Source of the DNA: Candidatus Omnitrophota bacterium
GTDB taxonomy: Bacteria > Omnitrophota > Gorgyraeia > Gygaellales > Profunditerraquicolaceae
Direction of reading: 5' to 3'
NCBI GenBank assembly: GCA_049517335.1
Contig: JBEKSD010000004.1
Span: forward strand, 1 to 64,000
Length of the DNA stretch: 64,000 nucleotides
The first letter of the stretch is position 1, and every line of letters begins with the position of its first letter. The notes beneath the pieces are model-generated. The model did no database searches. It worked only from the letters and a program-made list of their open reading frames with translations, and was not told the DNA's origin. Of this stretch, positions 1 to 47,010 are shown one piece after another. The position numbers were made by a program, and so were the translations under genes.

Positions 1-20
1 GCAGAAAACAGGACAGGGTA

Positions 21-760
21 ATGAAACGCGAGGCCATTGAGAATATCGCTAAATGTATGCATATAGCTGACGGTAGGGCAGGGGTATGCGACTCCGGTTT
101 AAGCGAAATAGGCTATGAGGATACGGCAAATCTAGGCACACCCATTAACACTGATTTCTTTGATCCCGCGATAGTTGATAGGTATGAGTTCAGAGACAGG
201 AATAAAATAGGGAGAGACAAATTTATGATTTTACTTCCCCACCGCGTCAATCCTCTCAAAGGGCAACTTGATTTAATCCGCGCACTAAATTTATTAGAAG
301 ATAAAACTGACTACGTAATTGTGCTGATGGGGGGGGTGGATGATGAGGCCTATTTGGAGAAGATGCACGCTTTCTCAAAAGAAAATGGTTTAGCAGCTAA
401 TGTAATAGTGCTTCCTGAATTATCGCGGGAGGAAGTACGTTTGGCCTATGCTGCTTCTGACCTCGTGGCCTTACCCACTTATGATGAAGGCTTGTCTACG
501 GTCATACTTGAAGCTCAGTCGATGACCAGGCCCGTTATTGCCACCAATATAGGCGGCAATAGAGAGGCCTTGGTAGATGGTCAGACTGGTCTAATAGTTG
601 AAGCCGGAAATCCTGAAGAATTGGCCAGACAAATCCGTGGGTTAAGAAACGATAACGAAAGAAGAAATAGATTAGGACATAATGGCCGTAGATATGTCAT
701 GCGTTTTGATGTCAAGAATTTAATAAAGAGACACCAGCAGTTCTATTTGCGCGTGATTAA
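21..760 (+). other. Giant protein domain: GT4 (GT-B) glycosyltransferase, partial copy 1
   Basis: RVNPLKGQ, DEGLSTVILEA, ATNIGGNRE and GQTGL motifs typical of the GT4 C-terminal half. Confidence 0.85.
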
Positions 761-3700
761 TAAGAAAGAAACAAGAGGAATGCCTAAGGAAGTTAAGGTC
801 GGCATCCGAAACTGGTTAATGGCCAACTTAAGGGGACCCATGCAGGCAGAATTTAATTACATAAGTTATGCCTTAGGCCTGCCGATTGAGCGCGAGCCGT
901 CATTAGAAAATAGAGTAATTTTAAGATATTCAGAAGCATATGATACTGTGGGGGGTGTTGAATTCCATCTACAGAGTCTAAACCGTTGGCTGCTGGAAAG
1001 AAATAAAGGTTTGACTATTATTCAAGCTTATCTTACTGATAAGAGCTCTGGAGAGTGGAGTGAGAATGTTGGCAGAGGAAAAATAATTTATCTTCCTATA
1101 CCGAGGATTTACGATAAGGACTATAACGCTACAAAAACAGATGCATTAGTTGCAGAAAAAATAACATTCCTCCTTAAAGAATACTCAGTTGATTTGTGTA
1201 TTACTAATTCTCCTTATCACCATTCTTCGGTAACCTTCTGTAAAGTAGCGAAAGAAGCAGGTCTTCCTTTAATCGTCCAGTATCACGGAGGAGAGATGGT
1301 GCTTAATCGTAACCTTTCCGATACTCATCCATTCAATAATAATTTTTTATTTGCTAAAAGAAATTTGCGGGCTTGCATGCAATTAGCAAACGGTCGCGCA
1401 GGGATAAGTAATTCCGGTCTTAGCGAAATTAATTATGCGGATGCAGTAAATTTAAGTAACTCAGTAGATACCATATTCTTTGATCCACAAAAGGCAAACT
1501 GGGGTAGCGTTAGAAACCGTCTCGGCCTTGGCGGTAGGTACACCATCTTATTGCCTAGTAGAATTACTCATGATAAGGGGCAACTAGATTTACTTCGGGC
1601 ATGTAAGTTACTGAAGGATAGAGGATATGATTTTGTTGCTATATTTGTAGGAGATGTGAATGATGAGGTATACAAGACAGAGCTAATAAGATTTTTAGAA
1701 CAGGATACAGAACTTGCTTCGAGGGTTTTTATACTCCCCGCAGTTAATCAGGAAGACCTTAGAGACATGTATGCTGATGCCAATGTAGTAGTTTTGCCTA
1801 GTTATAATGAAGGATTAGGTAGGACAATTATAGAGGCCGAAGCTATGGAGACGCCCGTAGTTGCTTCTAATGCAGGAGGTATTCCTGAGGCATTAGTAAA
1901 TGAGGATACAGGATTACTCTTTAAACCTGGTGATATAGAAGCCATAGCCAAGCATATAGAATTTTTAATAAATGATAAGGTCGCAACAATTGAAATGGGC
2001 CAGGCAGGAAGAAAGTTTGTCCTCGAAAAATTCTCACCCCAAGCGCATGTCAGGCGTCACGAGGCATTTTATTGTAGATTTTTATTAAGGAGTTCTTTAG
2101 TCCATACAGCTGCTTCTGCAGGGAATTTATATCAAGATGCCGCTTATGGTGGATACTCCTTCACGCGCACATCATCTACTTCTCGGATACATGTTAAGCA
2201 TCATCCAGAGTTTTCCCCTCAAGAGGATGCTTTGGGTGTTGTTTCTTTTGGGTTGGTCATGGGTAAAGATGCAATTAGGACTACCTCAGAAGGCAATGGA
2301 CCTAATCAAAATATAGCACAGGATTATATGGAGGCAAATCTGGAAGGGGTATTAGAGAAATTGAAACAATTAATTGAGAAATTGGGTAGTAAGATGCCCA
2401 AGAAAATCTCCGACACACTGATACCGGTTGAGTTTTCTCCGGAGACTCCGTTAAAAAGGCTGGCAGAGACTGTCGGCGAAGGCAGCAATAGGAAAATAAT
2501 CTTTTCCTGGGCCATGATGACCCGCGCCCCGCCTCTCATCGCTCAGCTTACCATTGCCGAAGAAATCCTGCATTATTTCCTACCAGAATGCGATGATCTT
2601 ATCCATAACTTAATTGACGATAATTTTGTATTAAACACTAGTTACCATGAGTGGAAACATTTTGTCCGCAAAGCAGAACCGCGGGGAATATTTGTTCCGG
2701 CTTTCCGGTGTTTGAATTGCGGCTTAGATGTACCTATACCTCAAATAGGGGCGCATAGGAGGGATCATTGCCCGAATTGTTTATGGGCGTTGCATGTAGA
2801 TGATACAAGGCCGGGTGACAGGTTGTCTTCTTGTAAGGGTTTGATGAAACCGGTAGGGGTTGAAGTAAATACAAAGTATGGCTGGGATATAATATACTGT
2901 TGCACCAAGTGCAACGCCATAAAGAAAAACAGAGCCGCCCCTGATGATAATATTGATGAGATGGCACGTATTGTCCATCCACGCGTAATAACACAGATCC
3001 TTGAAGGCGGGCAAGAGGAAGCCAGCTCGTCGGCTGAGGCGGGAGCGCTTATCAGAGAAGGCGTTGACAGCTTCATTCTAGCCAACCTGCGTCATTTTAT
3101 AGAAGTCCAGCATTTACAGGTGCCTGAAGATACCCTAATAGAAATAGCCAGGATTTGGGAGAAGGCGCAGCAAAGCGGAAAGAAAGTAGACTTATCAGTC
3201 CTTGGTCTTGAAGAAACCGTAAGGATACGCATTGAGGATTTTGCCAATGATCCGAATGCTTTAAGAGGAGGAATCCCAGTTGGCAAGGATAATCAGCCCG
3301 GTAGTGACAACTCACAGGTTGGGGCTGAGGCGAAGCAGAGTGTTTCCCAGATGAACGTCTCCGGAAGCACCATTTTGGATGAGTTGAGATTTGAATCTGT
3401 GCTGGGAATGTTTATAGAAGATAGCGAATCTCCTCTGGTAACTACTGAGAATTTAATAAACCAAAACAGTGCATCTTTAATTATAAAAGGTCAAAGAGAT
3501 GGTGAGATATTTTATAAAATTGCAAGACCTGGAAAGAATAAAAAAGAATATTTGTCAAACAACGATGATGCTATCAGAGAAGCGAGGGTGTTGGCCCAAC
3601 TCAATAGAAACGGCTTAACCGGCATACCGAAATTGCTGGCAATTGGCGTAAATAAAGACGGCAACGTCTGGATGAAATTGCTGGGTATAAAAAATGCAGA

Positions 3701-6700
3701 GAATCTGCGGTCACCTCGCTGGCAGAGATTTACGCACTCTCAAAAACTAGATATCCTTATCCATACAGCAAATATAATAAAAGGCATGCATGAGGCAGGG
3801 TGGGTCCATAATGATATCGCCCCCAAAAACATTCTTGTAGATGAAGAAGCCAATGTGATGCTGATTGATTTTGGCATAGCTTGCAAGGCAGGGTGCAGAG
3901 TTCTTGCGGGAACAAAAGGATTTGAGCCTCCGGAAGAGCAGCGCACCGCTAAGTCCGACGTGTATAGTTTTGGCCAAACCTTGCGCCATCTGTTTATTTT
4001 TACCTCAGGGGAGAAGATGGCCCTGGATGACATCCGGACAAGCGGGCTACAGGTCCTTGTCGATGGAACGACGCAAAGTAATCTGGATAATAGAAACCCG
4101 GGAAATATGGATGAGGTTATAAATAACCTCAATGCCGTAAGGGGTTATTTTAAGATAAGGGGGAAATCTAAACCCGCGCCAGCTGCGGTCGCATCTCCGG
4201 CTGAGGCTCGGTCAGAAACCGCCTCTTCGCCTTCCAAAGGTACTATAGAAATCATTGCACCTTTAAATTCTCACGAGCAAATCGTACCTTTGATTAAAGA
4301 GTGGCATAAGGCTCATCCAAATAAAAAGCTGCTTATCTTCAATTTTGATTCACATAGCGATAAGATAGTTAGTGAAGATGCGGATGCCCTTGATTATAAC
4401 TGGGCTATGAAAGTTGAAGAAAAGGGAATGGCGTGGGTGATACATTTTGGTTCACAATACCGTAGTATGGGATATCGTATGAGGGATAATCTTTGGAGTC
4501 TTCCGGAGCGAAAAAAAGAGATATTGCGACAGATTCAGGCACTTAATGGGCAATACGACGAAATTTGGTTGACGATTGACTACGACTTTTTTTCAACAAT
4601 TAACCAAGCATCTTGGCTTACTGAAGAACCTCTGCCAGCTTTTATTATGAGTAGCAATGAAATAAAAGCTGCCCTATATGAATTAGCAGAATTTTTGATT
4701 TCAAATAATTTGAGGGTTACCCGTTTGATACCAGCAATAAGTTGGGGTTATTTGGGCGTATCGCAGGGTATGAAAGCAGAATATGTTGAAGGAATTACCT
4801 CTCAAATTAAAACTATTTTTGGCCGCCCGTTTCATGAGATTGCCGAAGTAGTCCATACTGATAGCGCTGCGGGCGAACAAAAATCGCCGCTAGCTGCGGC
4901 TGCGAAATCCACCGCCGAAAAACGAGTTTTTGGTCAAGGGGATTTAGAGCAGCACTATTTTAGTCCTGACGCTTATAATTTTCATACAGAGACTCTTGAT
5001 TTTCATGAGGATAGCGTTGTCAATATGGCGTTCGCAGGTGACATCATTGATATTGGTGCTGGTAGTGGTGTTCTTTGGAGGGAATCTTTAAGTCGTCTTC
5101 CAAAGATACGGCGGCTTACGTTAGTCGATCTTTCTGAAGCATCGCTTGAAAAAGGCAGGGAAATTGTTAAAGATAAAAGAGCAAGTTTTGAATATGGGAG
5201 TGCCTATGACGTTGGTAAAAAGCATGAGAGGGAATTCGATTATGCATTGATGCGAGGTGCGCTCCATCATTTTGAACATGCTCAAGAAGCAGTAAATAAT
5301 GCGGTTCAGGCATTGCGAGAACAAGGAAAACTTGTCCTTATGGATGTGCTTGGTTATGAAGATGCGGAAGTTGACAGCTTGTTTAAAACAATTACACAGA
5401 TGCGTCAGCCTTTAGATTATAAATTTTACTCTAAATCAGAGTTAGAACGCATGCTGACAAAGGCGGGTTTTAAAATTACAGAGTTTCGCACTAATGTTTT
5501 TGAATTAGATTTAGATTTGTGGCTTAGTGAATACAAAGACGCGGCAGGTGTTTTAAATCTCTATGAAAACGCACCGGAAAAGGCCAAGAAGGCCTTTGGT
5601 TATAGAAAGGCTGGGGGTAAAAAATTCGCTTCTTTTACCGCTTATGTTCTTGTTGCTTCAAAAGCCAGCTCGCCGATAGAAAATGTTCTCCTTTCAAAGG
5701 CTGAAAATAATCCGCCCTCCGCCGCGCCTACGCCCGTCGCCGCTAATACAGCTAATGCCTTGAGCGTGTTCTTTCTATTAGAAAACCCTAATCTCACCGT
5801 CAGCCTGATTTTAGCTTACTTCTTGGCATGTTTCTTTAGGCGGGAGATTCTTAATTCCTGTATTATTAGCCGCGCTCCTCCTTTGGTAAAACAACTCCTT
5901 ACTGCACTTCTCTCTCCCGAAAGACTTTTATTTTTCCTCAAACAGAAAACGTTTTCCTTTATCCGGTCGCTGCAGAGTTTTATTGAATATTTGGTTAACT
6001 TCTTCCATGGCTGGTGGGTGACCAAATTCACCGCAGCGGCCGCGAATATTTCAAAAGGAGACACTGCTAGGTTCCATACAGGCCATATACAAGATTTGCG
6101 ACCCACCCCCGCAATGATAGGTGCTATGGCAAGCACTCCCCAGCCGCTTCGGGTACTGATACTGAACAGTTCACCAAGTAATATTTCTCCTATGGATAGA
6201 TCTTGGATAGAGGGGTTCTTTAGAAGCAATGGAATAAATTTTGTTCTCAAGGAAGTTTGTGATGAGTATGGTAGAAATCTGCGTAATAGTGAATTTGACC
6301 TTATCATTTCAGATACTCGCGTTATGTATGCAGTCTCCCCTGGATTCATACACTCCCTAAGAGAAGAAGATTCACGCAAGAGACACCATACGCATCTTCT
6401 TTATTCTCATGGGTCTCATCGTAGCATAGATGAGGTAGAAGCATTTATCGACCAGATAGAGGAAGAATGGTTTCGTAATCAGGAGGCAATTAATAAGGCA
6501 TTGATGTGCGCACTTCAATCCATTAACTGTCTTAGCTATGCCCTGCACAGAGCCACTGGAATGCCGTTTAAGACAGTATTATCTTGGCTTGCTCCGGCTA
6601 GAGGTGCATTCAAAGACAACCGCTGGCAGTGGTATCTGGGTAGTGCGCTTAGAGAGTTAATGAAACAGGGTATCCCTGTGTTTCAAATAGATAACAGCGT

Positions 6701-9700
6701 TTTTATCCTGCGTTGTCGTAAGAGAGATATCAAGCTATTTAAGATCACAGAGAACCTGTGCCATGCTGAGGTGCTGGAAGAAGAATTTGACTTAGGCGGT
6801 AGACAGCAGATTAAGAGAGTTCCAGAAGTATTAGAAGAGCAGTTTGTGCGAGGCGAAGATAGCTGTCAATCGTCCACTGAAAATTCTGCTTTCAGAAAAG
6901 CAGTAAATGACCTTATCCGCTTCTTCTGCGGTAAAGATTTGCCGGCATTTCCATTCTATGGCCGCTGGGAGATTGAGAGGTACGTGGGAGATTTGTCTGA
7001 ATTGCCGGCCCTTGAGGCCAAATTAAAGGCAACCTTTCCGGCTTTGGCGAAGAACTTACCTCTTAGACTTTTGCGAAAAGAAGTATTTGCATGGGCAAAA
7101 ACCCATCACCCTGACGTCTTAAAAGAAGAGATAGAATCTGAGTTTGAAGGAGTAACTTTTAGATTTAGCGTTGAGGAGATAATTGAATATGTTTTAAAAC
7201 CTGATGGAGAAAAAGTTGCAGAGTATAAAAATCCCGTAAGGATAGTTTATAGAACCCCTATTTCAGATAGAAGCCAGGCAGCGCCTTGGGCATATAAAAG
7301 AAAGGCAGCCTTATTGAGGCTGATAGTCTATCGAGACGATATTGCTTCTGATGAAGACAAGGACCTCTACCGTTTGTGGACAAATCAGATTAGGTTCTCA
7401 GCTATATCAACATATGAATTCTCAGCTATATCAACATCTAAATTAGTATATATGCTTCACTCTTCGTCAGAAGCAACAGCAAGAGACATTACGGACGAGC
7501 TGGTAAGGCGTGCTTGGATAGAACCAGACTACGTTGCAGGCCTAATTGTAAGAGTAGCGTTGGGTGATAAAACCTGTCAGAGGGTAGTGATAGAAGCTCT
7601 GTTAGCAATTGCCACCAAGATAGATATAATTGCGGTTAAAAATCCGCTACTCGGCGCATTTGCTGACCCGTTATGCACAGAGCCAGCCGCAGAGGTCTTT
7701 TTAAAGATTGCAGCGTTAAGACCAGACCAAGTAGAGGATTTTGAACGGCACATTAAGCATATATTAGTAACTAATAAAAACGAACAATTCGTAAAGACAG
7801 CGGAAAAAGTACTTGCCTCGCTTGAAGCTAACACAGGGCACCTAGGTGATAAAGCTGCCTATTCAATTCTTATTTTTCCGATGTTTGCAGCTATGCTTCC
7901 TTCAACCGGTAAGCTCATCGCTGCTGTATTATTAATCTCTGGCTTCTTAATTTTTATTTTATCCAGAACAAAAGCATTTTGTAAAATTATCCGGTCGCTG
8001 CGGAATATTATAGAGTATTTGGTCAACCTCTTCCGTGGCTGGTGGGGGACCAAAAATCTCGCCGTAGCGGCCGGCCTTTCATGCGAGCAGGCAAATGAAG
8101 GCGAGATAAAGCTGTTGGAAAGATTCAAGACCCCCATTTTAGATAAAGAAGTAACTCCCGCACAATTTAGGGAGAGTCTCAGATTTATAAAGAGTATATT
8201 TAAAAAGGTAAATAGAGAGGTGGCTTCAAGATATGACATTAGGACTATTATAAAAGAGATAAGGTATGAAGATTTTAGAGACATTAGAGGTCAACCTTGT
8301 CTCCTGCCTTCGTGCAGACCCGGTAGAAAAGTAGTATTAAACGCAAATTTTATAAAGTTTATTGCCTACTTGAAAGCAAAGGGATTAAACAAAGCTCCTC
8401 CCCTAAAAGATAGTCAATCAGGTAAAGAATCAGATTTATTATCCTCCTTTGTTTATTCCATAGCCCTGCATGAAATCCGCGGACATTTTAAGATGTCCAA
8501 GGGGCAGCTTATCTTTAATAGCGATGAAGATTCTGCTCAATCTCAAAGAGGGAATAACTACCTATTTATAAATATTCTGGTAATCTTATTTTACTGGCTC
8601 TGCCTCGTGGAAGGACACACTGGTGAGGAGTTAAAGAGAAGGGCAGAAGAGTTTGTCAGGGCTAATCCACAGTATATATTTGAAAGGCTTGAAGGTTCAC
8701 AGAAGAAAGATTTAGTTTCGCAACTCGGTGAGCTTTGTAGTGCTACTTCCGCAATAAGGCCCGCGGTACGCGAATATGTAAAACCCATTGCTCTTTATAG
8801 GACAAGTAGCCGTAGAGGAGAAGCTGGTTGGAAAAGGGTCGTTACTGCCGCACTACTTCAGGGAGAGTTTCCTAATCTTGAGCTTGACCGAAGATTGAGG
8901 ACTGGAAAATCAATTTACTTCACAACCATTTGGGGTGATGAATTAGTGTTGTATCAGTGGAGCAAGCCTCCAGAGAGAGAGAAACTACCTCCTGGTATAG
9001 GGTTATGCCTAACAGAGCAGAAGCCAATCGAATTTATGGCCAGCGATGGTGTAACAATAGAACTTGGCTGCATCGTATTCCCTGCATCTACCCGCGTAGA
9101 TTGTTCCAATGAAGGCAGGTTGATAGGGCAGAATTTAGAAGCACCGTCATTCTGGCGTCGAATAGATGACCAACTGATTGTAGAGCGTGTAGGCGAAGAT
9201 AAGAGAATAATCATAGAGATTGTTGGTATTTTTGAGGAAGAAATCCATTTCAGATGCCGTGGAGATGAATCTACGATGATGGAAACAAGAGAAGGATTTA
9301 AGCCTTCGCATTCACTAGACCATTGTTTTTTTGTGGAATATATGCAGTTAGGAGAGATAGTTAGATTTAGCATAGGAAATGAAATTATAGAGGTTGAATT
9401 AGTGTCCCTTGACTACGGGGGCCAAAGATGTGAGTTAATCGTAATAGCTCCAGGTAATTATAAGGTAATGTCTGCAGAGTTTAGAAGAGAATTCTTCATT
9501 GATTCAGATTCATCCCGTTCATTTCGTGTCGATTTAAAAAAGAGATGGAAATACGCCTCTCCTGACCTTGAGGTTATCCGTACGAGAGGTTATATAAAAA
9601 GATTTGCAGTGAGAAATCCTGATGGAAACTTTGAATTAGTAAGAGGAAAGAGTTTTGGCTTTGCCGGTTTTATTCCTATCATTGGTTTGTTACACGAAAA

Positions 9701-30700: not shown

Positions 30701-33700
30701 TTTAATGCTAGCGTGGGCCTTGGCATTAGGGATTATATTTTCAATACCTTGCAGTATGGAAACAAAAAGCATTATTGTGGCTATCCTGCAACCATTCTCC
30801 GCTATTACTATGTCCTATCTAGCGAACAGGAGATCTGATAGAGGCGGGCAAATAGAATTGAGGGAGTGGGCAAAACCAGTATTAGTTTTCACTCTTGTCT
30901 TTAATTATCTTTTCTTTGTGGTCGGCACCATGTGGCTTCTAAATATTCCCCGCCTTCGTATTCCTATGCTCCTCACAGGCGTATTTTTCTATGTTGCGGT
31001 AGTTTTATTGGGGTTTAGAAAATCCGTTCCTATGCCGGCAGATGCTTTGCCACTTCTCCAGAATTGCCTTACTATCGCTTGCCTTGATAACTATGCAAGA
31101 GGGCCAAAGAATATATTTAGTGACAGAAGCGATATTAATCAGAGGTTGCGCGAGGTTTTTAGATACGCCGGGCCTTCTATAGAAAATTTTGCCGGGCATA
31201 ACAACCTGATAATCAATGAACCGCAATTGCGCTTTATAAACTGGTATTCAAGTTTCATGGGCGAGGATAGACCTATATTTGATATATTGTATTTACAGGG
31301 ATTATACCGCCTTATACTAAGGTCAGTGAATTTTAATTACAATTTTCAAAAGAATTTTGCTGCCTTATCGATGGCAACTCAACTCCTTTTTCTCAATAAG
31401 GCCAATGAATCCTTAGGCATCATTGAAGGTGAAATTACAGCAGCATATTTGCGTAATCCGGCCAATAGAGGAAAATTAGCTTATCTTTATGAGACAATCG
31501 GTGTAGTCTATATGGTTTCCTACGACGAAGAAATACCCAGCATGATGGATGAAGTTTATATCAATTCTTGCCTTGCCTCAGCAGGCCTGAATCTCTACCG
31601 GTTAACACATATGACGATTGATGAAGTTGAAGGTATTCTTAATATTAACCCTTCAAGGATAACTTCGCGGCGGATATCATACCAGGATGAGTCGGAGGAG
31701 AGAGCCTACTACAGGAGGCTACAGGCAGATATAGAGGCCGCATGCGGTATTACCCCGGGAAAACAATCTGCTGCACGAGCAGATTTGGATGTAATGGTAT
31801 CTTCCCGAAGAAGAACCGAATGGGGACGTAACAGAATGCTCTCCGTTCCGATGGAGGATATCGACCATGCCCTGATAGATTTATTTAGAAACAATGAAGG
31901 CAAATTCATCAGAGATACTTTGAGTAAAAAGGTGGGCCACGAGATTGCCTTAAAACATATTGATAATCATATAGTTATAGAATTAAGGAACGAAGCTGCC
32001 CGTAGCGGCATATATAAAGTGTACACCGGAGTAAGCGAGGGGGATAGCGGTCAATTCAAACCATGCGCTTTTGGCTTGGCGGTTGCAAAATGCGATTTTT
32101 TAAATAGGGCCGTAGAAAATGAGTTTAATACAGTAAATCATTTTCGTCAGATTTGCCGTTATGTAATGCAGCCCTACTGTTGCGATAGGGTTTCTATTTC
32201 TGTCGCGGGAATAAATACTGAATTAGCGGTATTTTCCATGGAGTGGAAAGAGGGATTTGAAGAGGTTAATTTTGTTTCAAGGCGGTTGGCTCGAGACAGG
32301 CCTGAAGATTTCGGGGATTTGGTGCAACCGGCAGAAAGTGGCGCAGGAGTTGTTCTATCCGCCTACAATCCAGCACGGGGATTGACAACACTTGTGCCAC
32401 TGGATAATGAACAGACCGGCAGGAATATCAAAGAAGAGATAGTAAAGATTATCACACTCTGTTTTGACCCCGAGAAAGGCGAGAGATTAGAAGACTCCTG
32501 TTTTAATGCCGGAGATTTTGTCTACAATCCCGATACAAAAGAAGTTTCCCTTATAAGCTGCAGGGGGATTCGGGCCATGAATCAAGAAGGAATGTTTGAA
32601 TATACCAAAGAACAGGTCAATGTATATGATTTTATATTTTGGTTGTTATCAACCAAAACGATCTCTCAAGGAATTTGTTGGTTGCCTCCGGGCCACTGGG
32701 GCGATTACGAAGAGATTATCTTTGAACCTCAAGATGTTTTTAATGGAATTAAGAAAGCACTAATAGAGAAATATGGGCCAAGGGAAGGTATCAGGAAGCT
32801 GGTGGTATGGTTTAAGTTTTATAACGAGGTAACTAAAGACTCTTTGGCTCACTTATTAAAGGATGCGGAGCCGCCCGCTGACCCTGCCGCTTGCAACCCA
32901 GCCGGAGTTGCGCGCACGACGAGCTATGGCCAACGCTACTATGAATTGCTTAAAGATGCACGTTGGTCTAGTCAGGTTCGGGCCTGGTTCATTAAGGTAT
33001 TCGTTACTCCATTTATGGAACCGATTGATTTTATGCGTAAGCCAGGAGGATTTGCACGGTTCATGGCTGCTCATAATGATATCTTGGGTAAGTCATCCTT
33101 GCATAAGGCAGCGCAAGTGTGGTTTAGGCTTCTGAGAGTTGCCCTGCGGTTTAAAAACCCGTTTATCAAATGGGGGATTTGGGGTGTTGGTTATATCCCT
33201 GCAGTAATCTCACATTCATTATACAACCTTGGCCTTCGTCCTCAAGGAGCAGCGGTGGGAGTGGCGAGGAAGAATAATCGAGGAAAGCCGATTCAGCCAA
33301 GGCGAGACCAAGAGTTAGAAGCTCTTGTTGAGTCGATTATGGCAAGTGGACAGCAAGAACAAAAGATTTCTGGTGGGATTGAGATAAATATGGTTACCGG
33401 TCCAAATAAGAAAAGATTTGTGCCCGCAGAAGGGCATACTGCTTCACCGTCGGTCACGCTCTTTCGTGATCGTATTGCAAGAGGAGAAATCTCTGAACTT
33501 GTAGATTTGTGTGGCGAAGAGGAAGTTCAGATTCTTCTGGCTAAGTTAATTGATTCAGCTGATTTTATAGTTGAAGTACCTGATACCCCAAAACATGAAG
33601 CAATCATAGATACTGTATTAAGATTAAAAGCAAAGATTGATCTAATCCAGATGATTAGTATTGCTATGGCGATGGAAGCAGTGGTCAATCACCTCAAGGG

Positions 33701-36700
33701 AGAAAGAAAAGATTATGCACCATTACTCGGATACCTTAATGAGTACCTTATTAACAGTCATACGCGCAACAAACGTTTGGCGCAGATGTACGGTAGTATT
33801 CCAGCTATTAGCAGCGCTACTCAGATACAAAGGTTGGAATTGTGGGGAGTAAAAAGTGGCTACCATGCGGATGTAATTCGGGTAGAGGTGAAACTGGTTG
33901 ACCAGCGCACGCTCCGTTTTGCGGTCAACGTTAGCAGGGATTTACGTGATGCAGTAGGTGAACTGCAAAGGGCCTTTGATTCATTAAAAGCTAAATTTGC
34001 CCAAAATTCTACCTATATTATGGAACCCTTCACTTTGGGCATCGGCAACGTATCTTCATGGCGAGGCGAGGAGTCAGTGCCGCTAATGGTAAGCGAATGG
34101 CTTGATGGATTTGACGAACTGCATCTGATGGAGACAACCGGTTCCCGTATACGTGTACGGTATGGCCAGGATGAATCAAAGGACGCTCTGCCTGAGCCTG
34201 AAAGCGACCAGGTCTGGCAAACCATGACAAGAATTAGGACTCTATATTCCGAGCTGACTACCGAGAAAGGCACTGCATTACAAGCACACGTCATCGCAGG
34301 GGACTTCGTTGGGAAAAAGAATGCAAAGGGCGGGTGGGAAGTAATGGTAGTTTGGACGCAAGATAATATTCGCAAGCAATATGCGCGGGAAGAAATTGTC
34401 TTAAATGCCTTGCTGCAGGGTGAAGTGGACTTTCTGTCTAGTTATATTTTTTGTCCAGGCGCAATATTGTGGGAGCGTTTTGATTTGGCCATTCCAGCAT
34501 TTGTGGCAGGTTTTGTTGAGGCAGGAGGAAGAAAGGAGAATGCCTTAGAAATACTGCGGCTGGTTTATAAAGAAACCCTACCAAGGATATTAAAGAGTTC
34601 CGAATCACACCCTGTGGTTATACGTTTACAAGAAGCCTATGGAGAGGAAATTTTAGTTAGGTTGAGGAAACTCCGGCGTGCCATAGGGAAGTTCTTAGGA
34701 GAAGAAGATGCCGAGCCTAGAAAACAAGAAGTATCTGACGAGGAATCCACTGATAGGCCATCGTTGGTGCAAAATGTAGAACTCGAAGATATTATTGGAG
34801 CCCATCCATTTAAAGTGCAGGCGGTGGTTGGTCCGGATAAAACTCCTCTCTACGGAGAAGATGGAACTTTTCTTTCTAATAAAGGACCTACCATAGGAAC
34901 ACTTGAGCAATTACGAGGCTTTCCTTATCAAAAGTTAATTGCCGACTTAAAAAGAGATTGTAATATCAGCGAAGAAATGCTTTTGTTTATTTTAAGAAAG
35001 AGCCGTAATATTCGTGGCGTTATGGTTCCTACAACGTTGGAAAAAACTATTTTACCTTATCTCGATGCTATTATCAAACTTAAAAAAGCCTTACTTACTG
35101 CCAGAGTTCTTGATGGCGAAGAAATCATTCAAGCAGTAATGCTACATTTAGCCGGAGCAGATTCTTCTTACCAAAACTTGCTACGTTATATAAATCATAT
35201 CCTTTCCAACCAAGGACAAAACCCCAGGTTTGCTGCTATTCTTTCTTCGGAAGATAAAGTAAAGAATGTGCAGGAAATTGAGAGCCTTGAACTATGGTTT
35301 GTCAAAGAAGGCTCTATTACCGAGGTTGTTGCAGTTGAAGTGCAATTACGCGATATTGCCGGCAGGCAATCAAAGGTTAGATTTGTAGTCAATGTTCCCC
35401 TCGACCGCACAAAGTGCGTTGAATGTCTGAGGCATGCTTACTCTCGGCTACATACCTACTATCAGCGTAATCCCAGTTTTGTTATGGAACCTTTTGCTTT
35501 AGGCACAGAAGAGGTACCGCTACTTGTCGGAGAATGGGTGGAGAATAGTGATGAGTTACATTTATATCATGAAACTGGCGCAAAGCAATTTCATGTCTGG
35601 GCAGGGCAGGAGCAGAGAAAAGATGTAATACGCTCGGTTGAAGATTCGCGGGAAATTTGGAAACAGATTATTCAGGCTAGGGTTATGTATTCGCAGCTCT
35701 TACCTGAAATGGGAATCCTACCCTGCTTATTGTTTGTTAACCGGGGGGATTATGTGGTCTATGACGATATGCAAGGCAGTCCCCATGTCGTTTTAATTTG
35801 GGATGGCAGTTTGAGTTTATATAAAGGTATCTATGAAGATATCAAGGTTTTTAACCCCGTAGATATTGTAATAAATATGCTTTACATGTTTGACCGAGAT
35901 TCTGATAGCGGGAAGGAATATCTTATCTGTTTTGATGAGCCTGATTTGGCTATTCAGATTTTGGAAGAAACCTTCCCGCTCTGTCAACCCTATCCTGAGC
36001 TAGCCAAGAGCTTACTCCAAATGTTATTTATCACGGCTTACACTGAGGGTTTTCCAAGTTTAATTGAAATGCTTAAACCAGAAGAATCTCTTGGGAGACT
36101 TTTAGATTCGAGCGAACAACCAAAGCTATATGCCGCAGCAGTAAAGGCTTATGAGGCACTGGGTAGATATTTGAAAGGAAAAGAAACAGGCTTGGGTGGG
36201 ACCGGGATTTATTCGCAGGAAGAAATAAAGCAGATGATTGAAGAAGACAGAAGAGCGGGTAGGATTGAAGCGCCTTCAGCGCAACTTAAGCGGAAACTCT
36301 CGTTTGCGAATTTCCTAGCCAGCCCCAACATTATCTACCTGCGCTATATAAAAGCGCGCGGCCTGATTAACGCCCCGCCGAAAGTCCGTGGTTACCAAAT
36401 CATTAACTCCGAACGAATCCGCTTTGGTGCCTGGCTTTCTGATAACGGCGTTCTTTACCTTGAAAGACCCTACCTTCCCCAGAACCTCACCCTGCTTATC
36501 TCCCACGAACGCATAGAAAAAGTAACTCAAGACCACGCGCTAGCCCAGCGTTTAGCGCCCCTGATTCAGCTGCTATCAGCTAACCCGCCAACAGACACAT
36601 ATCAAATGGTGCAAGTCCCCGGGACCAGGATTATTATTTATTCATCCCGAGATATTCCCCTGTCAGATGACTATACCTTGATGTTTGTTAATCTAATTAC

Positions 36701-39700
36701 TAGGATGCCGCGCTTTTTTAAGAGAAAGAAAGCGCTTGATATGGGAACTGGTTCCGCAGCATTAGCCAAGACACTGTTAGGCTATACCAATATGGAGAAG
36801 GTGGTCGCCAGCGATATAATACCACAAGCGGTAGAGCTTGCGCGGATAAACTTAAGTGAAGAAATTAGTGCTGGGCGGGCTCTAGTAAGACAGAGTGACC
36901 TTTACGAAAACATTAGGGATTTGTTTCCGTTTGACGTTATCCTTTTTGCTAATCCCTTTATAGAAGGCGATCCTGACAGGAAGAATATTCTGAGCTATTC
37001 TACAAAAGCAGGGAAAGGGTATTCAACCGTTATCAAGGCATTACAGGGATTGCCTCAGGCGCTTACGCCGGGTGGTAACGCCTTTTTCGTGGCGACGTCG
37101 GGTTATCTCGGTGAAAATTCACCCTTCTTAAATCAGAGAGATCTTAAGAATAATGTGCCTGCTGGGTGGGATGTGCAAGATGTAGGCGAGTCTTACGAGG
37201 CCCGTCAAGGGATTTATTTCTCCGTGTTTCGGGTCTATGACCTATCAAAAGAAAATGGAGGAGTGTATGTTGAGTTGACGCCGGAAGCGCCACGTTTCCA
37301 TTTAGCTGCGCCGCAAGAGTTCAGCGAGTTAATGCGCGTATTAAGACAATACCTGCCAATATATCATAGAAGAGTAGAATCGCCCTTCGCTCCCGGACAT
37401 TATCCTGGGCGACTTATCCCAGCGGATTTGTCCTGGAGGGCTCCTCCAGAAAAAGCGCAGAGAGAATATTTTGAGCGCGCCTCTAAGCAATATGAGTTAA
37501 GGTATGACTTTGACCCCACGCTTGAGACAGTTGCCGAGTGCTCCTTGTTTGGTGCAACAGCCACCTTTTCAAGCGAACTTCTGGCAAGGGCGCCTCCTTT
37601 AAAGGATACCCGTAACTCCCAACTCTTCCAGGTCCTGATTAATGAATTCTTACGCCATGAAAAAGGCCATTCCGAAAATAAATTAGACCCGCAAATCCTT
37701 ACCGAATCCTTAAACTATTTCATAGCCAATCCAAAAGAACTAAAAGATTTCTTAGAGGCACTCAGGGTCTTTGGCGTAGAGATTACCGATAGGAAATACC
37801 TCGCTGAATTAAAGAAGATAGATAGTCTCACATCAAAAAATAAACCCGTAAAAGCCGCTCCTGAGCCGTCATCCCATGCCTCCAGCCTCATAAGAACCCA
37901 ACAACCCGTTGGTTATTATCTTTTGCGGTATCTTATGTTTATTGATGGTCTAACCGAACAATACAATCTCGTCTCAAGCTTGCAAATTTTCTTCTTCGGT
38001 AAAATGCCGGAGAAGTATTTTAAGTTCAGGAAATTCGGGCTTTCAGGGGCCCAACAACAAGAGGCTCTTAATCTCCTTATGAGAGTCTATAAACAGATCG
38101 TTTCTCAAATGGACGAAACATCTCTGGATAGAGAGCTACTTCAAGATTTACTTAATGGTGTTGTAGATGAGGTCGCTAGGATATACCGGATATCTTGGCA
38201 GGATTTCTCGGATGGTTTTGATGCATCGTTGAGAGAAGATAAAGATGTTGTTGACAGAGAGTTCCGAATTTTCTTGAGTTATCTCGAACCTTGCTTACAG
38301 GAGGAAGCTTCAGATAGAAAGTGGCGTATTGCACAATTCTCTCGAGAAGTAAAGAGTAAGCTCCATGACGTGGCCCTCATTTATTTGCTTCAAAATATTC
38401 CTCTTCCCTGGCAAGTTGGTAAGACCAGAGGCAAAGAAGTTTCATGGAGACAAAAGGGTAAATTCTGGGTATTTGCCACGCAACATTATGGTTGGAAGGG
38501 TGTTTGCTATATAGAGGTGGTTTATGCAGAGCAAGCTGATAACCAGCCGATTTATGTTTATTTCGGCGCTTCGCCTCCAGCAACCGTAATAATTGATGAA
38601 GGACTTTATCGGGAATACGCAGGGAGTAATCGCTCCACCCCCGCCATGCAGCCGACGGATGATACCAAAGCTCGGTTGGCTGAGGCGATGGAGCAAGACC
38701 GAAAGGCTCTGTGGGCTGCGCTTGGGAGAGGCGACACCAGCGTTCAGGGCAACGAGCACGTCCTTGCCTTATCGATTCAGATTGCAGCAGAAGAAGAAGC
38801 TAAGCGGCCACATTGGCAGCGGTTGCTGGTAGTGTCAATTTTCTCGTCGTTCTGGTTTGCCCTCGTGCATATCAGAGGTGTGGTGGATATGGAAAAGGTA
38901 AGAGCGGGAGACCCGAATCTGTGGCGACATCCGAGACTTGGTGAACTGTGGAGTCTGTTTTGTTTAGCTCAGGCCACGGACAAAGTTTATCGAAAAAAAT
39001 ATCACGAGGCAGTCAAGCACTCTCTGGGGTTAAGGTGGCAAAAGGGAATAGCCCGGCAGGATGCCTTTGCTGAGGCAATCCAGGTGCATCAGGAATTTAA
39101 CCGTGCGGCCTTCTTGCAGAAAATCCCGAAAAAATATCATCCTGCCTTAACTAGCCTCTTTGCTCAAGGCGTGCCACGCGTGCCGGCAATGGCGGAAAGA
39201 GAGAATGATGATGAATTAATAATTATTGATCCAAAAAAAGGCACACGCGTAAGAACTATTGATTACAAATCCCCAATTCAACTTATTCTTGGGAGCGAGG
39301 GAAGCAAGAGATTCCTAATTTTAAAAGCCAAAGATTACCTAGAGCTTTGCGGAAAAGATGCATACCCCATAAGTGACTCTACTAACAAGAAGTTATATTT
39401 ATTTGAATTAATCGACCCTGGAGGAGAAAAAGTTATTCCACACGCGCCTCTTGAATTGACAGCAACAACCATTTTGCCTTTAGGTAGCGATATACCTGAC
39501 TCAGTCTCTGAAAAAAATTGCTCTATTAACTTAGCATTAGCAGGTGAAGCTAAGTTAACGATAACTGTCGATGTTAATACCAATGGAACAGCATATAAAG
39601 AATGTAGTGTTGCTTCATTACAGGCTTTGCTGACGCAGGGATATAGAATTTATGACAAAAAGGCAGCTGAGCAGACAGAAGCTAGAGATAGAAAAGCCCA

Positions 39701-42700
39701 GATTAGAGAGGAAGGCGACGATGGATTACAAACTATTCCTTCAGGAGGTACACAGCCTATTCCTTACACTTCCCCAATTCAACTTGTCCTTAGACACAAG
39801 AAAATTTTAATTTTAAAACCCGCAGACTACCTAAAACTTTGTGGAGAAAATGCATTTCCCATAGCCCCTAACATAAATTTCTATATATGCGAATTAATCG
39901 GTCCTGAAGAAGGAAATTTTGCCGCACACATCCCCATACCATTGGAAGCAAATGGTTTGACTTTGGGTAGCAGCGAGCAATGCTCTCACGGTCTACGTAT
40001 GCCTAAATCAGTCTTCCCAGAACACTGCGTTATTAAAGAATCAGAATCAGATACCTTATTAGTAACTGATAAAAGTAATACCAAGAGCACAAGATGGAAA
40101 TACTGTAACTTTGACGAATTAAGCTTATTGCTGGAACAAGGATATAGAACTTATGGCGAAGTTCAGACCACTTCCCCAATTCAACTTATTCTAGGAGACA
40201 AGGTTATTTTATTTTTATGGCCCGATGATTACGAGAGAGTTTCTGGACAAAGTCTACCTAACTTAGACCCTAACAAAATCTATATATTTGAATTAATCGG
40301 CCCTAAAGAATTAATCGGTCCTGAAGAAGGAAGTTTTGACCCCCAGGCGCCTATACCATTTGAAACAACCGAGTTAACTTTAGGCAGAGATACAAACTAC
40401 TCTTACCATATGCATATGCCTGGCACAGTCTCTAGGGTCCATTGCTCTATTAGATTCTCAGAACCAGATAAGCTATTGGTATTTAACAGAAGCCCTAATG
40501 GAACGTTAGCTGAAAACTGTAGCATTGCTTCATTACAGAAGTTGCTGAAGCAAGGGTATAGAATTTATGGCGCACAGCCAGCAGAGACTGTAAAGAAAAA
40601 AGCCCGGATTTTCAAGAAAAATGACATATATTTTGTAGCCTTTACGGCTGAGAGCTGGGAGGATGAACTTCCTTTAGCTAGTTTAGCTGCTGTAATGCCG
40701 GTATTAATAAAACAAAATAAACTAAAGAAATTTAATTTTTCATTCACCAAGCCTTGCCTCTGGTCTTGGTTTAGGCCTATCGTTACCATAAATAAGCAAA
40801 AATACAATCTAAAAGATTCTGCTCAATGTCATGCACTTGAGGCCTTGCTAGAAAGTTTTATGCTTGAGACAACAGAGGTGCAACAAATTAGGCCAGAAGG
40901 AAAACCGACGGAAGAAAAACAGCATCATCTTGTAAGGACGGCACTAATTGTTGTTGTGGCTGTTGCGATTATTATAGCGGCGCTTATCTATCTTCTGAAT
41001 CAATTGGGCGTTATTTCGACTAGCCGTTTAATTCCACACTCTTTTAACTCATCTCCAGTATCTACTTTTCTGCACGATCTGCACTCGCAATCGGGCACCC
41101 GGTGCCCGATTGCGAGTGCAGATCGTGCAGCTTTGCCTTTGCAAACGGTGCTCAGTGTTTGTTGCCTTGTGGGAATGATGAGAAGTGGCGGTACACCCAG
41201 CTCGGCTCGGCCGCAGGACGTAAAGGGTAACCCAGTGAAGACCGAGATAGGTGCAATTTTAGAGTTAAAAGGTTATATTAGAATTTTAGCCTCTAATAAA
41301 ACCCTTTCCGAAACTGATATTAAGAGACTCCATCAGTTGGTTTGCGATTGTTACGCGCCCTCTATGGCAAAGATTATCGGAGGCAGATATCGAACTAAAC
41401 CAACTAGAAAAACTGCAGGCGATGACACAAATTATCTTAGGGTGTTTGATGAAGCCCAGACGAGACAAATCCCGCAAATGATGGTTGCTTTTCTTTATTG
41501 GTTTAATCAGGAATATCAGTCTGTAATAGGCAGAGATGTCGGTTCGTTGGTATTGTTTGCAGCAGAGGCACATTATAGATTGACGCATGAGATCCATCCA
41601 TTTGAAGATAAGAACGGATCTACAGCCAGAGCTTTAGTAAATATAATTTACGAAAAATCAGGCACGCCAAAGAAGTTACCTATAAATTTATCCGAAGTCT
41701 TCTATGATAACCCTGCAAAAGTAGATTACTATGACACTTTTAGATTGTCAGAAAGAAAGCAGGCGATACAGCTTCTGTCGCAATTTATTATTGAAAATTT
41801 AGAGTCTGAAACACCGGCCGTCCCCCCAACAACCAACCCTTCCGCAAAGCGCCTCCGTCAAGAAGGTGGTTTCATCAGTCTGCCGGCGGGGGTAGTCCTG
41901 ACAAAGAGAATGGTATCTTCGAGCCCAGTGGTGAAAGTAGATGGAAGATCGACATCTGAGCAGTTATCAGGTTACCTATATAAACTCCTGGCATGGTTAA
42001 AGAGATTAGCGCATTCTCCTTCGCTATTTATGTTTGTATTCACTCTGGGAGCAATATTTTTTGGTAGCCACAGCCCATACGAGTTTGCAGGGCTGTGCGC
42101 GCTGGGGATGATGATGAACGCAGGGAAAAAACCGCTGGCGCTCTCGAGCCCGGCGGGAGAGGACAAAGCCGAAGAACTGTCTGCGAGTCAAGGGAGCAAG
42201 GTGGCTCCGGAAGGCTCGTTGCGGAATACAAACATGCTACTAACATGGTCGTTTAGTGATGAAAGAGATAGAATCAAAGCACCATCAAAGGCTGATGCTT
42301 TCCTTTCTGTATTGGATGAAAAATTGGTAGAAATAGGTTTATTAAAAAGGGACTGGATATTCATAAAGGTTCCATGCATAGAAATGGCTCTAAATATCAT
42401 GAATCACGGTCAGGGGGGAAATATCGAAGTACGTTGTTTTAAAGATGTGGCCTCTTTAAAGAAAGTTGAAGCAACAGGCATTGACAAAGGGTCGGGCATG
42501 GATAATCCCAATGAGTTCTTACAAAGAAGTATAGTTGCCCACTCTAAAATATCTGCTTATGGGCGTGGAGAAATACCACTAAGCGAAGTTCCTGAAGGAG
42601 GGCGTGGTTTAAGGGATATTGTAATATTTCCGGATGAAGTTATCATTGAAACGAAGGGTAAAAAATGGGTTAGAACCGGAGTTACTGATGAGGATATGAA

Positions 42701-43087: not shown

Positions 43088-43780
43088 GTGCCGACGCAGA
43101 GACGTTATGTAAGATGGGTTTTGCATAAGGACGCAAAGTTTAAGGTAGGCCAGGCCGGTTCGCCTTACATTGATTGCGTAATTACTGATTTAAGTTTTAA
43201 AGGAGCTAAAATCAACACTCATATGAAGCTTCTGCGGGATACTTTTGCGGAGATAAGCATTATTTTGGCTGAAAATGTTGTTTTAAATGTTGAAGCGTGG
43301 ATAGTGTGGCATAAAACGGTAGATGGGATTAATTCCTATGGGGTTTATTTTTCCAAGATACAAGACCATGATAAGGAAAAAATCTACCGTTTTATTTGTT
43401 CAAACTATCCTAAACAATTAAACGAAAAAAGATGGTATGAACCATCGCAAGAAGAAAAGGAGGGTAAGGATATGGAAGACCGCAGGATTTTTCAAAGATT
43501 CTCGGTAGAACGGCCGGTAAGGTTCCTGGATATGGATAGCGGAAGCGAGGGGAAGGCTATGACGCTGGATATCAGCGCTAAAGGGATTGGTTTGGTATCT
43601 AGTTCTGAGCTTAAGCCGCGCGCTGCTTTGGAGATGTGGCTTGAGGTTGCCGATAAAGAGGAGCCTATTTACACGCGCGGAGAGGTGGTTTGGTCTAGAA
43701 AAACAGAATCGGGTAACTTTACAGCCGGGATTAACCTTGAAAAGGCTAATCTGATGGATCTATCAAGGTTATTAAGGTAG
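43088..43780 (+). CDS. Tandem PilZ-domain (c-di-GMP receptor) protein
   Basis: Two RxxxR + DxSxxG pairs (QRRYVR/DLSFKG; DRRIFQR/DISAKG); AAGGAGG RBS before the GTG start. Confidence 0.9.
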   Translation: MPTQRRYVRWVLHKDAKFKVGQAGSPYIDCVITDLSFKGAKINTHMKLLRDTFAEISIILAENVVLNVEAWIVWHKTVDGINSYGVYFSKIQDHDKEKIYRFICSNYPKQLNEKRWYEPSQEEKEGKDMEDRRIFQRFSVERPVRFLDMDSGSEGKAMTLDISAKGIGLVSSSELKPRAALEMWLEVADKEEPIYTRGEVVWSRKTESGNFTAGINLEKANLMDLSRLLR

Positions 43781-43794
43781 CTGTTTTATTTAAG

Positions 43795-43819
43795 AAGGTG
43801 CCGACACTGGCATTTTTTT
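43795..43819 (+). terminator. Probable intrinsic terminator after the PilZ gene
   Basis: GGTGCCG-ACAC-TGGCATT hairpin followed by a T run. Confidence 0.55.
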
Positions 43820-43821
43820 GC

Positions 43822-43850
43822 TTGACCATGCGTTAAACTTATGGTAAATT
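43822..43850 (+). promoter_or_regulatory. Sigma70-type promoter of the sugar cluster
   Basis: TTGACC-17 bp-TAAATT with a TG extended -10. Confidence 0.6.
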
Positions 43851-46973: not shown

Positions 46974-47010
46974 AAAAAGTTTATTTAATTGAAAGGAGAC
47001 AGCTTAATTA

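Follow-up and report, generated by a model that had tools for sequence, protein, structure and literature searches.

The 64-kb stretch of DNA analyzed here (the window) consists of the first 64 kb of contig C4 (G000:C4:1-64000) of a metagenome-assembled genome (G000; 1,446,715 bases, 31 contigs, 92% complete, 0.06% contaminated). It contains a giant open reading frame (ORF) whose product is punctuated by two short recurrent motifs, RAPP and SSP. The ORF list showed a plus-strand frame that is open from base 3 to a stop codon at 42795-42797, giving 14,264 codons without a stop and bearing out the single ORF of more than 42 kb described in an earlier note on this DNA. Since the frame leaves contig C4 at its first base, the ORF is incomplete at its 5′ end. 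The first ATG, at base 21, from which the earlier note had counted the ORF, is not the gene start, because the frame exits the contig and because the first of two GT4 glycosyltransferase copies lacks its N-terminal half (only the C-terminal half with Glycos_transf_1 at aa 61-230 is present, and the upstream sequence is too short for the remainder). The full gene is longer than 42.8 kb. The only other ORFs of at least 150 aa that overlap it are two short antisense ones. Judged from the neighboring genes, the host is an Omnitrophota bacterium; the ribonucleotide reductase encoded on contig C4 shares 83% identity with Candidatus Omnitrophota sequences.

The assembly was checked by comparing contigs of sequencing runs (Logan contigs) with bases 1-20000 only. 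Run X1, which may be the source sample, covered bases 93-20000 with zero mismatch in unitigs of up to 9.4 kb, and two other peat samples contained pieces of at least 99% identity in 30/30 and 24/30 bins of the first 20 kb; the pieces from these two independent samples were at most 800 nt long and indicate presence, not long-range linkage. Within the compared bases no contig joint was found beyond base 1462, and the run contigs are in agreement with the assembly. No RNA data set was listed as containing bases 1-10000. Joints at 136->450 and 1097->1462 in contigs of other runs skip 313 and 364 bases, respectively, and loose contig ends were observed at window positions 136, 498, and 1814, within the first 1.8 kb. 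All of them fall into the part with the GT duplication, a situation that accounts for the contig break, and they may reflect GT repeats that vary in copy number or sequence. We conclude that the ORF is a real, 5′-truncated gene, of which the 3′ 42.8 kb are at hand.

Domains were searched for in 600-aa tiles against Pfam and NCBIfam, complemented by a comparison with PDB chain sequences. The 16 domain-sized matches obtained cover 20% of the residues, and the more than 20 domains counted in the earlier note were thus not reached; four of the 16 (the N-half Glyco_transf_4, ACT, NTP_transf_5, and HATPase_c_2) lie below the curated cut-off. A relaxed scan of the other 80% of the residues (45 tiles, E ≤ 0.5) added nothing significant, and the roughly 11,000 unannotated residues surely hold further folds. 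Hydrophobic segments were located by a Kyte-Doolittle (KD) scan only, which gave 18 peaks at KD ≥ 1.8 and 33 segments at KD ≥ 1.5; along the giant ORF they alternate with the enzyme and regulator domains, as the earlier note had described. The features are listed with their window coordinates and strand; TM stands for transmembrane, SAM for S-adenosylmethionine, and NTase for nucleotidyltransferase.

3-42797, +, giant ORF, 14,264 codons plus stop; 5′ end open, leaves the contig start
141-761 (aa 47-253), +, GT4 copy 1, C-terminal half, Pfam Glycos_transf_1 (aa 61-230) and NCBIfam; N-half beyond the contig start
948-2090 (aa 316-696), +, GT4 copy 2, weak Glyco_transf_4 N-half (aa 316-445) followed by Glycos_transf_1
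2481-2696, +, RAPP class A module with RAPP at 2523-2534, common to the G008 and G021 giants; RAPP invariant
2700-2954 (aa 900-984), +, RNHCP domain, Pfam E 3.6e-29
3516-4130 (aa 1172-1376), +, protein-kinase-like domain, catalytic loop HNDIAPKN, DFG present
5022-5525 (aa 1674-1841), +, SAM methyltransferase 1, Pfam and NCBIfam
5871-5882, +, RAPP site 2 (aa 1957), 11 residues past a hydrophobic stretch
7905-9995, +, hydrophobic helices at aa 2635, 2853, 3236, 3292, and 3313, Kyte-Doolittle
10293-10304, +, RAPP site 3 (aa 3431), class D context shared with G021
16647-19487 (aa 5549-6495), +, GlnD-like block of NTase, HD, and two ACT domains, TIGR01693 pieces and Pfam DUF294, ACT
19596-19751, +, TM hairpin (aa 6532-6583), hydropathy
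20739-20750, +, RAPP site 4 (aa 6913), motif count
21435-21638, +, TM cassette copy 1 (aa 7145-7212), self-comparison and hydropathy
21693-22772 (aa 7231-7590), +, geranylgeranyl-reductase-like FAD enzyme, TIGR02032 at 107 bits (cut-off 158.8), PDB 3oz2 over 353 residues
22902-23471 (aa 7634-7823), +, weak nucleotidyltransferase-like region, NTP_transf_5 E 0.003
24078-24332, +, TM cassette copy 2 (aa 8026-8110), repeated unit beginning exactly at SSP
25482-25709, +, TM cassette copy 3, diverged (aa 8494-8569), self-comparison
27615-28043 (aa 9205-9347), +, SAM methyltransferase 2, Pfam, PDB sequence, and NCBIfam
28239-28493, +, TM cassette copy 4 (aa 9413-9497), beginning at SSP
29904-31016, +, RGPP (aa 9968), then about 8-10 hydrophobic helices (aa 9977-10338) with one HEXXH; no family match
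33606-35630, +, two copies of a unit of about 195 aa with unrecognized fold (aa 11202-11396 and 11687-11876), self-comparison
36663-37100 (aa 12221-12366), +, HemK/PrmC-like methyltransferase 3, Pfam, PDB sequence, and NCBIfam
37437-37817, +, RAPP sites 5 and 6 (aa 12479 and 12529) and class B module; RAPP invariant in four giants, helical bundle downstream
39186-40625, +, three tandem units of 137-173 aa, the last with FHA, self-comparison and Pfam
40377-40559 (aa 13459-13519), +, FHA domain, significant in Pfam, in the last of the three tandem units
40941-40997, +, strongest single TM helix (aa 13647-13665), hydropathy
41304-41672 (aa 13768-13890), +, Fic-like domain, Pfam Fic at 36.5 bits (cut-off 24), motif HPFEDKNGSTAR
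42297-42668 (aa 14099-14222), +, HATPase_c_2 (RsbW-type) match, E 4e-4, sub-threshold

The motif RAPP first surfaced in an unbiased k-mer count of the giant protein, of which it is the most enriched tetrapeptide. Six copies (aa 841, 1957, 3431, 6913, 12479, and 12529) were found, compared with an expectation of 0.16 by composition and 0.17 by a first-order model, and a single RGPP at aa 9968 lies nine residues ahead of the polytopic helix cluster. Outside the giant, the 902 ORFs of the genome with a length of 200 aa or more (359,880 aa in all) have a single RAPP (bias 0.59, Fisher 2e-8); RGPP, HAPP, and RSPP are absent from them. Eight giant ORFs of relatives were read through for motif counts. 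The three tetrapeptides with the highest enrichment in seven giants (221,135 aa) were SSSP (47 versus 2.05 expected), SSPV (44 versus 2.04), and RAPP (34 versus 1.59, P 5e-33), and in nine giants (342,973 aa) RAPP occurred 39 times in 23 context clusters, with 1.62 copies expected from a first-order Markov model. Each of the other 11 permutations of R, A, P, and P was found 0-5 times in the seven giants, where RAPP was enriched 21-fold, HAPP 16-fold, RGPP 6-fold, and RAGP 3-fold, and RAPG, AAPP, and RDPP were absent. The dipeptide PP is scarce overall in these proteins (PPP 0 versus 13 expected), and in the G019:C4 giant four of its 11 occurrences lie in RAPP. In two module families present in four giants at 20-32% identity, RAPP is the sole invariant four-residue block.

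The six RAPP sites of the giant ORF differ in their codons and, except for two neighboring sites, occur in unrelated contexts; the SSP codons are varied as well. DNA-level signals were thus ruled out for both motifs, and RAPP and SSP are selected at the protein level. Of 70 RAPP-like sites, 24 have a TM-like segment at a distance of no more than 20 aa (about nine at random), and only one is followed by a Shine-Dalgarno sequence with a start codon (7.9 at random), which excludes an arrest that exposes an internal start by leader-peptide logic. The structure prediction for the class B module (RAPP at aa 12529) was confident only at residues ~40-115, and in this model the RAPP would be located in a non-regular stretch directly before the confident helical bundle; a fold search with the module retrieved generic helical bundles (best Z 5.5). 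The prediction for the class A module had a mean pLDDT of 43 and was not used. In a giant ORF of a further relative (G273:C1), several RAPP or RAGP sites follow a hydrophobic helix after 5-8 residues, and units of helix, short spacer, and RAGP are repeated.

RAPP is reported to form the core of the arrest peptides ApdA and ApdP, in which Pro-tRNA binds to the A site and peptide bond formation is blocked, and a genetic selection yielded RxPP and R/HxPP as strong stallers that are modulated by upstream residues (PMC10951233). Robust arrest refractory to EF-P is described for RAPP and RGPP, and arrest is also supported by RAGP, the SecM motif; RAPG and AAPP are arrest-defective, and RGPP and RAPP rank among the most under-represented bacterial tetrapeptides (PMC12992588). 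The spectrum of RAPP variants in the giants parallels the published arrest competence.

The second motif, SSP, whose recurrence had been pointed out in the earlier note, was found ten times in the giant protein versus 2.6-2.8 expected, and none of 300 shuffles reached this number; its bias was 3.8 versus 0.92 in the rest of the proteome (Fisher p 5e-5). Giants of relatives gave 52 observed versus 3.3 expected (G023:C5, 18,962 aa), 19 versus 1.8 (G023:C7, 12,627 aa), 18 versus 3.1 (G019:C4, 17,444 aa), and 93 versus 7.4 (G188:C1, 39,687 aa, from a complete 1.97-Mb genome), and the motif is real and family-wide. Its flanks are specific to the lineage (SSSP[VI] in G023, [LIV]SSP[AS] in G188). SSP avoids domains: none of the 52 copies in G023:C5 lies inside its 19 Pfam domains (9.8 expected, P 0.0002), eight of which have an SSP at most 60 aa upstream (2.9 expected, P 0.003). 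In agreement, none of the 17 SSP or R[AG]PP sites of the giant ORF studied here falls inside one of the 16 annotated domains (3.4 expected, P 0.023), and in two cases the duplicated TM cassette begins precisely at an SSP. The abundance of the two motifs is inverse among giants, as SSP-rich giants are TM-poor and devoid of RAPP, whereas RAPP-rich giants are TM-rich with SSP at expectation.

The TM cassette consists of two to three hydrophobic stretches and is present in four copies of up to 76% identity, in line with the recurrent cassettes of the earlier note. Five Lys/Arg in the 15 residues upstream versus one downstream form a charge pattern that fits a cytoplasmic N-flank. A profile of the cassette matched only one of 41 genomes, G000 itself; the cassette is thus ruled out as a scaffold of the family, a role the earlier note had suggested, and is by its sequence a local duplication. 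A search of the ESM Atlas with aa 9900-10400, the region of the polytopic helix cluster, gave no usable match.

Among the recognizable domains, the two GT4 copies share 41% identity. The GlnD-like block preserves the order NTase-HD-ACT-ACT (TIGR01693 positions 13-195, 329-536, and 666-842) and scored 45-111 bits, far below the equivalog cut-off of 519 bits, so that the score does not identify GlnD itself and aa 5549-6495 are to be taken as a putative GlnD-like block. The motif HPFEDKNGSTAR of the Fic domain departs at two positions, with Lys in place of Gly and Ser in place of the first Arg, from the canonical form, which we take to be HxFx(D/E)GNGRxxR; the fold is likely, and with a degenerate motif the predicted activity is uncertain. 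The kinase and Fic domains show weak NCBIfam similarity to XopAU, LegK1, and XopAC, all far below the cut-off. From the cargo proposed in the earlier note, the GlnD-like, kinase, FHA, methyltransferase, and glycosyltransferase assignments were recovered, the RsbW-like match is weak, and the Fic motif is degenerate; CsrA, GNAT, and RsbT were rejected, as none was significant in the Pfam or NCBIfam scans (no CsrA match at E ≤ 0.5 in the giant ORF, and GNAT only at E = 0.17 in the relaxed scan).

A metallopeptidase-like scaffold, also proposed earlier, was not confirmed. The giant ORF contains three HEXXH sites (aa 882, 10025, and 12552) versus 0.4 expected, none of which lies within a peptidase family recognized in the Pfam, NCBIfam, or relaxed scans, and in the class B homologues of the module around aa 12552 the second His is not retained. 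A zincin scaffold was thus not found, and the motifs concerned are probably His-containing helices after two RAPP modules and not zincin sites.

The missing 5′ part of the gene was sought among ORFs of at least 1,500 aa at contig edges of the genome. One such ORF leaves a contig at its 5′ end, the giant ORF itself, and one at its 3′ end:

G000 C22:13806-18758, +, ORF of 1,651 aa, 3′ end open; signal anchor and Peptidase_C39

A basic tail, one hydrophobic helix, and a Peptidase_C39 domain (Pfam 31.5 bits, cut-off 22) make up the N-terminal part of this ORF. C39 was matched nowhere else in the genome, and Pfam recognized nothing in the more than 1,300 residues behind it. The head (first 280-440 residues) was found at 33-63% identity in 23 of 41 related genomes (G000 included), and a query with aa 1-300 matched 88 of 301 genomes sampled across the phylum; nearly all matches lie at the start of very long ORFs, with thousands of codons and up to 82,151. 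RNHCP modules like those of the giant ORF are also present in the head-bearing ORFs of G008 and G021. The papain-like triad Cys, His, and Asp is invariant in all four aligned C39 heads. On this sequence evidence we lean towards the C22 ORF being the N terminus of the giant gene. The same break pattern was observed in G023, where a headed ORF of 12,627 aa (C7) leaves a contig end and a headless ORF of 18,962 aa (C5) opens another; these may be halves of one gene.

The 40 nearest genomes all belong to the same family or order, and many contain giant ORFs. Against these, aa 801-2000 gave isolated domain-sized matches only (RNHCP with 38-50% and kinase with 26-31% identity), most of the stronger ones inside other giant ORFs of 5,879-57,756 codons, and in five family genomes with giants, aa 1801-4800 gave no more than two domain-sized matches. 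No full-length relative was retrieved at E ≤ 1e-5 when aa 1-5000 of a 10,000-aa reference were compared with proteins of 5,500-17,500 aa only. Shared modules are reordered: the class A and B modules lie at aa 841 and 12529 here and at aa 24311 and 16723 in G008. A variable body behind a conserved head would fit the conserved part plus variable cargo anticipated in the earlier note, with the C39 head and not the TM cassette as the shared element. The giant ORF of G021:C5 (57,756 aa) comprises SleB-like, M15, and M23 cell-wall hydrolases, an M50 peptidase, glutaredoxin, sugar-nucleotide enzymes, receivers, and an HTH_3 run; unlike in this giant, no cell-wall hydrolase was found in the assembled part of the ORF studied here.

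For the Omnitrophota giants it is an open question how proteins tens of thousands of residues long are made, folded, and inserted by a cell whose genome measures about 1.4 Mb, and whether the product functions as one chain or as many; the two protein-level motifs between domains provide concrete sites for testing. The recognizable modules and their hydrophobic surroundings support the view of the giant as a membrane-threaded string of enzymes that would need cytoplasmic cofactors (nucleotide sugars, ATP, SAM, and FAD). We see an even chance that it is a membrane-anchored multi-enzyme chain with pauses at RAPP and SSP linkers at the module borders. Such a protein would be made as one chain and inserted co-translationally, with helical hairpins anchoring it in the inner membrane of the producer. 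Its cofactor-dependent enzymes and regulators, i.e. glycosyl-, methyl-, and nucleotidyltransferases, a kinase with FHA domains, and the GlnD-like and Fic-like modules, would be arrayed on the cytoplasmic face. RAPP and RGPP, often beside TM segments, would serve as programmed translational pauses in which the preceding module gains time to fold or insert, and SSP-[V/I/A] would be an interdomain linker or a recognition motif for a lineage-specific factor such as a protease or modifying enzyme; cleavage into separate proteins would be possible. A still bolder idea, to which we give less credence, is that RAPP-family arrest motifs, which other proteomes purge, are built-in checkpoints where the ribosome would stop, at module borders and beside membrane segments, until folding or insertion of the module before it is complete, and that SSP-[V/I/A], replacing RAPP in TM-poor giants, marks points of recognition by a lineage-specific factor and possibly of cutting into separate enzymes. 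If it were true, the checkpoints would make it possible to synthesize chains of 14,000 to more than 80,000 residues without error, and the SSP sites would supply the 'cleavage points' that earlier work called missing.

Several observations weigh against the membrane-anchored chain with pauses and linkers. Taken at face value, single TM helices such as that at aa 13647, between FHA and Fic, split ATP-dependent domains across the membrane. The sole SecA_DEAD (PF07517) match of the genome is the canonical SecA on C3, with none in the assembled giant. At the arrest point, TM segments located 5-20 aa upstream of RAPP would still be in the ribosomal tunnel, so that a classical release by pulling force poorly fits these sites. 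Moreover, RAPP is reported to stall only with a permissive upstream context (PMC10951233), and some or all of the sites may therefore not arrest; Arg with Pro-Pro behind a helix could also act simply by stopping transfer or breaking the helix. That SSP and RAPP vary inversely in abundance is a hint of a single common role, and this would suit a site of cleavage or recognition better than two distinct functions; lineage-specific SSP flanks are as expected of a co-evolving protein factor. As to the head, no sequence is common to the ends of contigs C22 and C4, the completeness of the genome is 92%, and up to two or three C39-headed genes can occur in a relative.

The last points on the motifs lead to a self-processing polyprotein that a protease, be it the C39-like head or a different one, would cut into separate enzymes at borders marked by SSP, RAPP, or both; some of these enzymes may be passed to an attached prey or host cell and change its regulation. 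We consider this rather unlikely. Punctuation that stays outside domains in G023:C5 and in the giant ORF alike resembles polyprotein cleavage sites, the duplicated TM-cassette unit starts exactly at such a site, the flanks fit co-evolution with a protease, and the inverse abundance suggests interchangeable sites; the head is conserved with an intact catalytic triad, and the kinase and Fic domains bear the faint similarity to the secreted effectors XopAU, LegK1, and XopAC noted above. However, C39 peptidases are known for double-glycine sites, not for SSP or RAPP, as is also stated in the cited text of West-Roberts 2023, and the head after its signal anchor would face outward, whereas most of the sites flank cytoplasm-type enzymes. 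The spectrum of RAPP variants follows the rules of ribosomal stalling and not those of any protease known to us. There is no secretion system in the 21 kb downstream (only PilZ), and searches found no S8 peptidase in the genome and no peptidase family in the assembled body. Action in prey also has to be set against the genome's own nitrogen signaling. The giant ORF carries the only complete GlnD-like block of the genome, which has no other GlnD-like gene, and four P-II (PF00543) matches lie within 7 kb at C9:17766-24460, one of them inside a 653-aa ORF, so that action in the producer fits at least as well as action in prey. The full NTase-HD-ACT arrangement is confined to G000 in the comparison with the 40 relatives, two of which (G016 and G032) have a partial block in a long ORF.

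An extracellular coat or machine for the digestion of prey cell walls, as proposed for Velamenicoccus archaeovorus and the 'Archaeovorins', with the chain mostly outside the cell and serving in attachment and in the breakdown of polysaccharides or peptidoglycan, is a distinctly improbable alternative here. It would account for the adjoining sugar ABC importer, MFS sugar transporter, two GH2-like proteins, ROK, and LacI, which resemble the neighbors reported beside giants, for the more than 1,300 residues past the C22 head without a Pfam match, and for the cell-wall hydrolases in the giant of G021. Yet profile scans of all 14,264 assembled residues detected no glycoside hydrolase, lytic transglycosylase, adhesin repeat, dockerin, or HEAT, and the recognizable modules need ATP, SAM, nucleotide sugars, or FAD, which are unavailable outside cells. 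Even less credible is that the motifs are structural linkers only (helix caps or stop-transfer elements) in a gene that is simply a long fusion. Pro-rich linkers are common, one third of the RAPP-like sites adjoin TM helices, and the class B RAPP is predicted to precede a helical bundle, but the preference of RAPP over the other permutations is extreme, PP is otherwise avoided in the giants, and the rest of the proteome avoids RAPP. An assembly chimera or decaying pseudogene, finally, is hardly conceivable: the contig does start in a duplicated GT region with branching assembly graphs, as seen from the joints and loose ends, but against this stand the uninterrupted 14,264 codons, the lack of overlapping ORFs of at least 150 aa apart from the two antisense ones, and the match of the X1 unitigs and of two more samples over the bases compared.

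The giant protein finds its closest counterparts in giant, membrane-threaded, multi-enzyme proteins of Omnitrophota that have already been described (West-Roberts 2023, bioRxiv 10.1101/2023.11.21.568195; Nielsen & Lui 2026, bioRxiv 10.64898/2026.06.07.730766), a literature left aside where the earlier note calls the scaffold unlike MARTX, RHS, or CDI. The published giants contain GT, methyltransferase, and HATPase modules, TM threading, and an N-terminal C39 domain (West-Roberts 2023; Nielsen & Lui 2026); autoproteolysis by C39 or S8 domains has been proposed, with the cleavage points called unknown (West-Roberts 2023). With at least 14,264 aa, the giant exceeds the threshold of at least 10,000 aa used by Nielsen & Lui; that of West-Roberts is >90 kb. 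It resembles the 'Archaeovorins' and the 'multi-enzyme' class 1 of Nielsen & Lui (Pfam modules 1 and 2) in its phylum, its size of tens of kb, many TM helices, and GT1, methyltransferase, and HATPase-type modules. Further likenesses to published Omnitrophota giants are C39 beside a signal sequence (here on C22, so that the link is presumptive), GH2 and sugar-import neighbors, a poorly conserved body, and contig breaks inside the gene. It differs from them by GlnD-like, geranylgeranyl-reductase-like, FHA, and Fic-like modules and by an assembled part in which SecA_DEAD, HEAT, NUDIX, glycoside hydrolase, and dockerin are missing (NUDIX in the Pfam and NCBIfam scans); SecA_DEAD is reported in most, not all, full-length giants (West-Roberts 2023; Nielsen & Lui 2026). 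By its sequence features, the giant is another member of this known class.

The punctuation by RAPP and SSP is, as far as searched, a new and unreported feature: the main texts of West-Roberts 2023 and Nielsen & Lui 2026 make no mention of it, and among the papers listed in a literature search none links the RAPP motif to Omnitrophota. The giants share with ApdA, ApdP, and SecM (RAGP) the core tetrapeptide and the tolerated variants RGPP, RAGP, and H for R, and with RAPP-type arrest peptides in general the frequent proximity to TM or secretory segments and a motif that is avoided elsewhere in the proteome. Known arrest peptides are encoded by small leader ORFs, carry the motif close to the C terminus, and regulate a downstream gene, whereas the giant contains several motifs deep inside its ORF; a Shine-Dalgarno sequence with a start is not enriched after the sites, and arrest is here predicted from sequence. 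A motif that ranks among the most avoided in bacteria because it stalls ribosomes, and that is enriched about 20-fold in the longest bacterial ORFs, would, to our knowledge, be the first multi-use arrest motif in a structural gene. Like MARTX toxins, the giant is a very long protein with several unrelated enzymatic modules and probably a cysteine peptidase in the same chain. Unlike them, it has dozens of predicted TM helices and housekeeping-like modules, no type I secretion genes nearby, and no MARTX-type cysteine protease domain, RtxA repeats, RHS, or CDI elements in any scan. As in viral and other polyproteins, a short motif with lineage-specific flanks recurs between unrelated domains; unlike for viral polyproteins, no matching protease specificity is known, the host is bacterial, and cleavage is only putative.

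Downstream of the giant ORF, all genes lie on the same strand and are ordinary chromosomal genes, which also include ribonucleotide reductase, phosphoglycerate mutase, and MnmG:

43088-58558, +, genes for PilZ, a sugar ABC importer (binding protein and two permeases), MFS_2, two GH2-like TIM barrels, TPR, ROK, and LacI

Elsewhere in the genome, a conserved protein of about 480-550 aa that corresponds to the HD part of GlnD only (profile ~320-565) is encoded at G000:C1:48578-49174 and occurs in 39 of the 40 relatives. Two adjacent ORFs of 2,423 and 4,416 aa on contig C11 (G000 C11:3769-24245, +), with no RAPP and two SSP in total, overlap by 40 bases in different frames and encode TPR and M28 peptidase, HAD, and HEAT domains, respectively; they might together form another long gene that a frameshift has interrupted.

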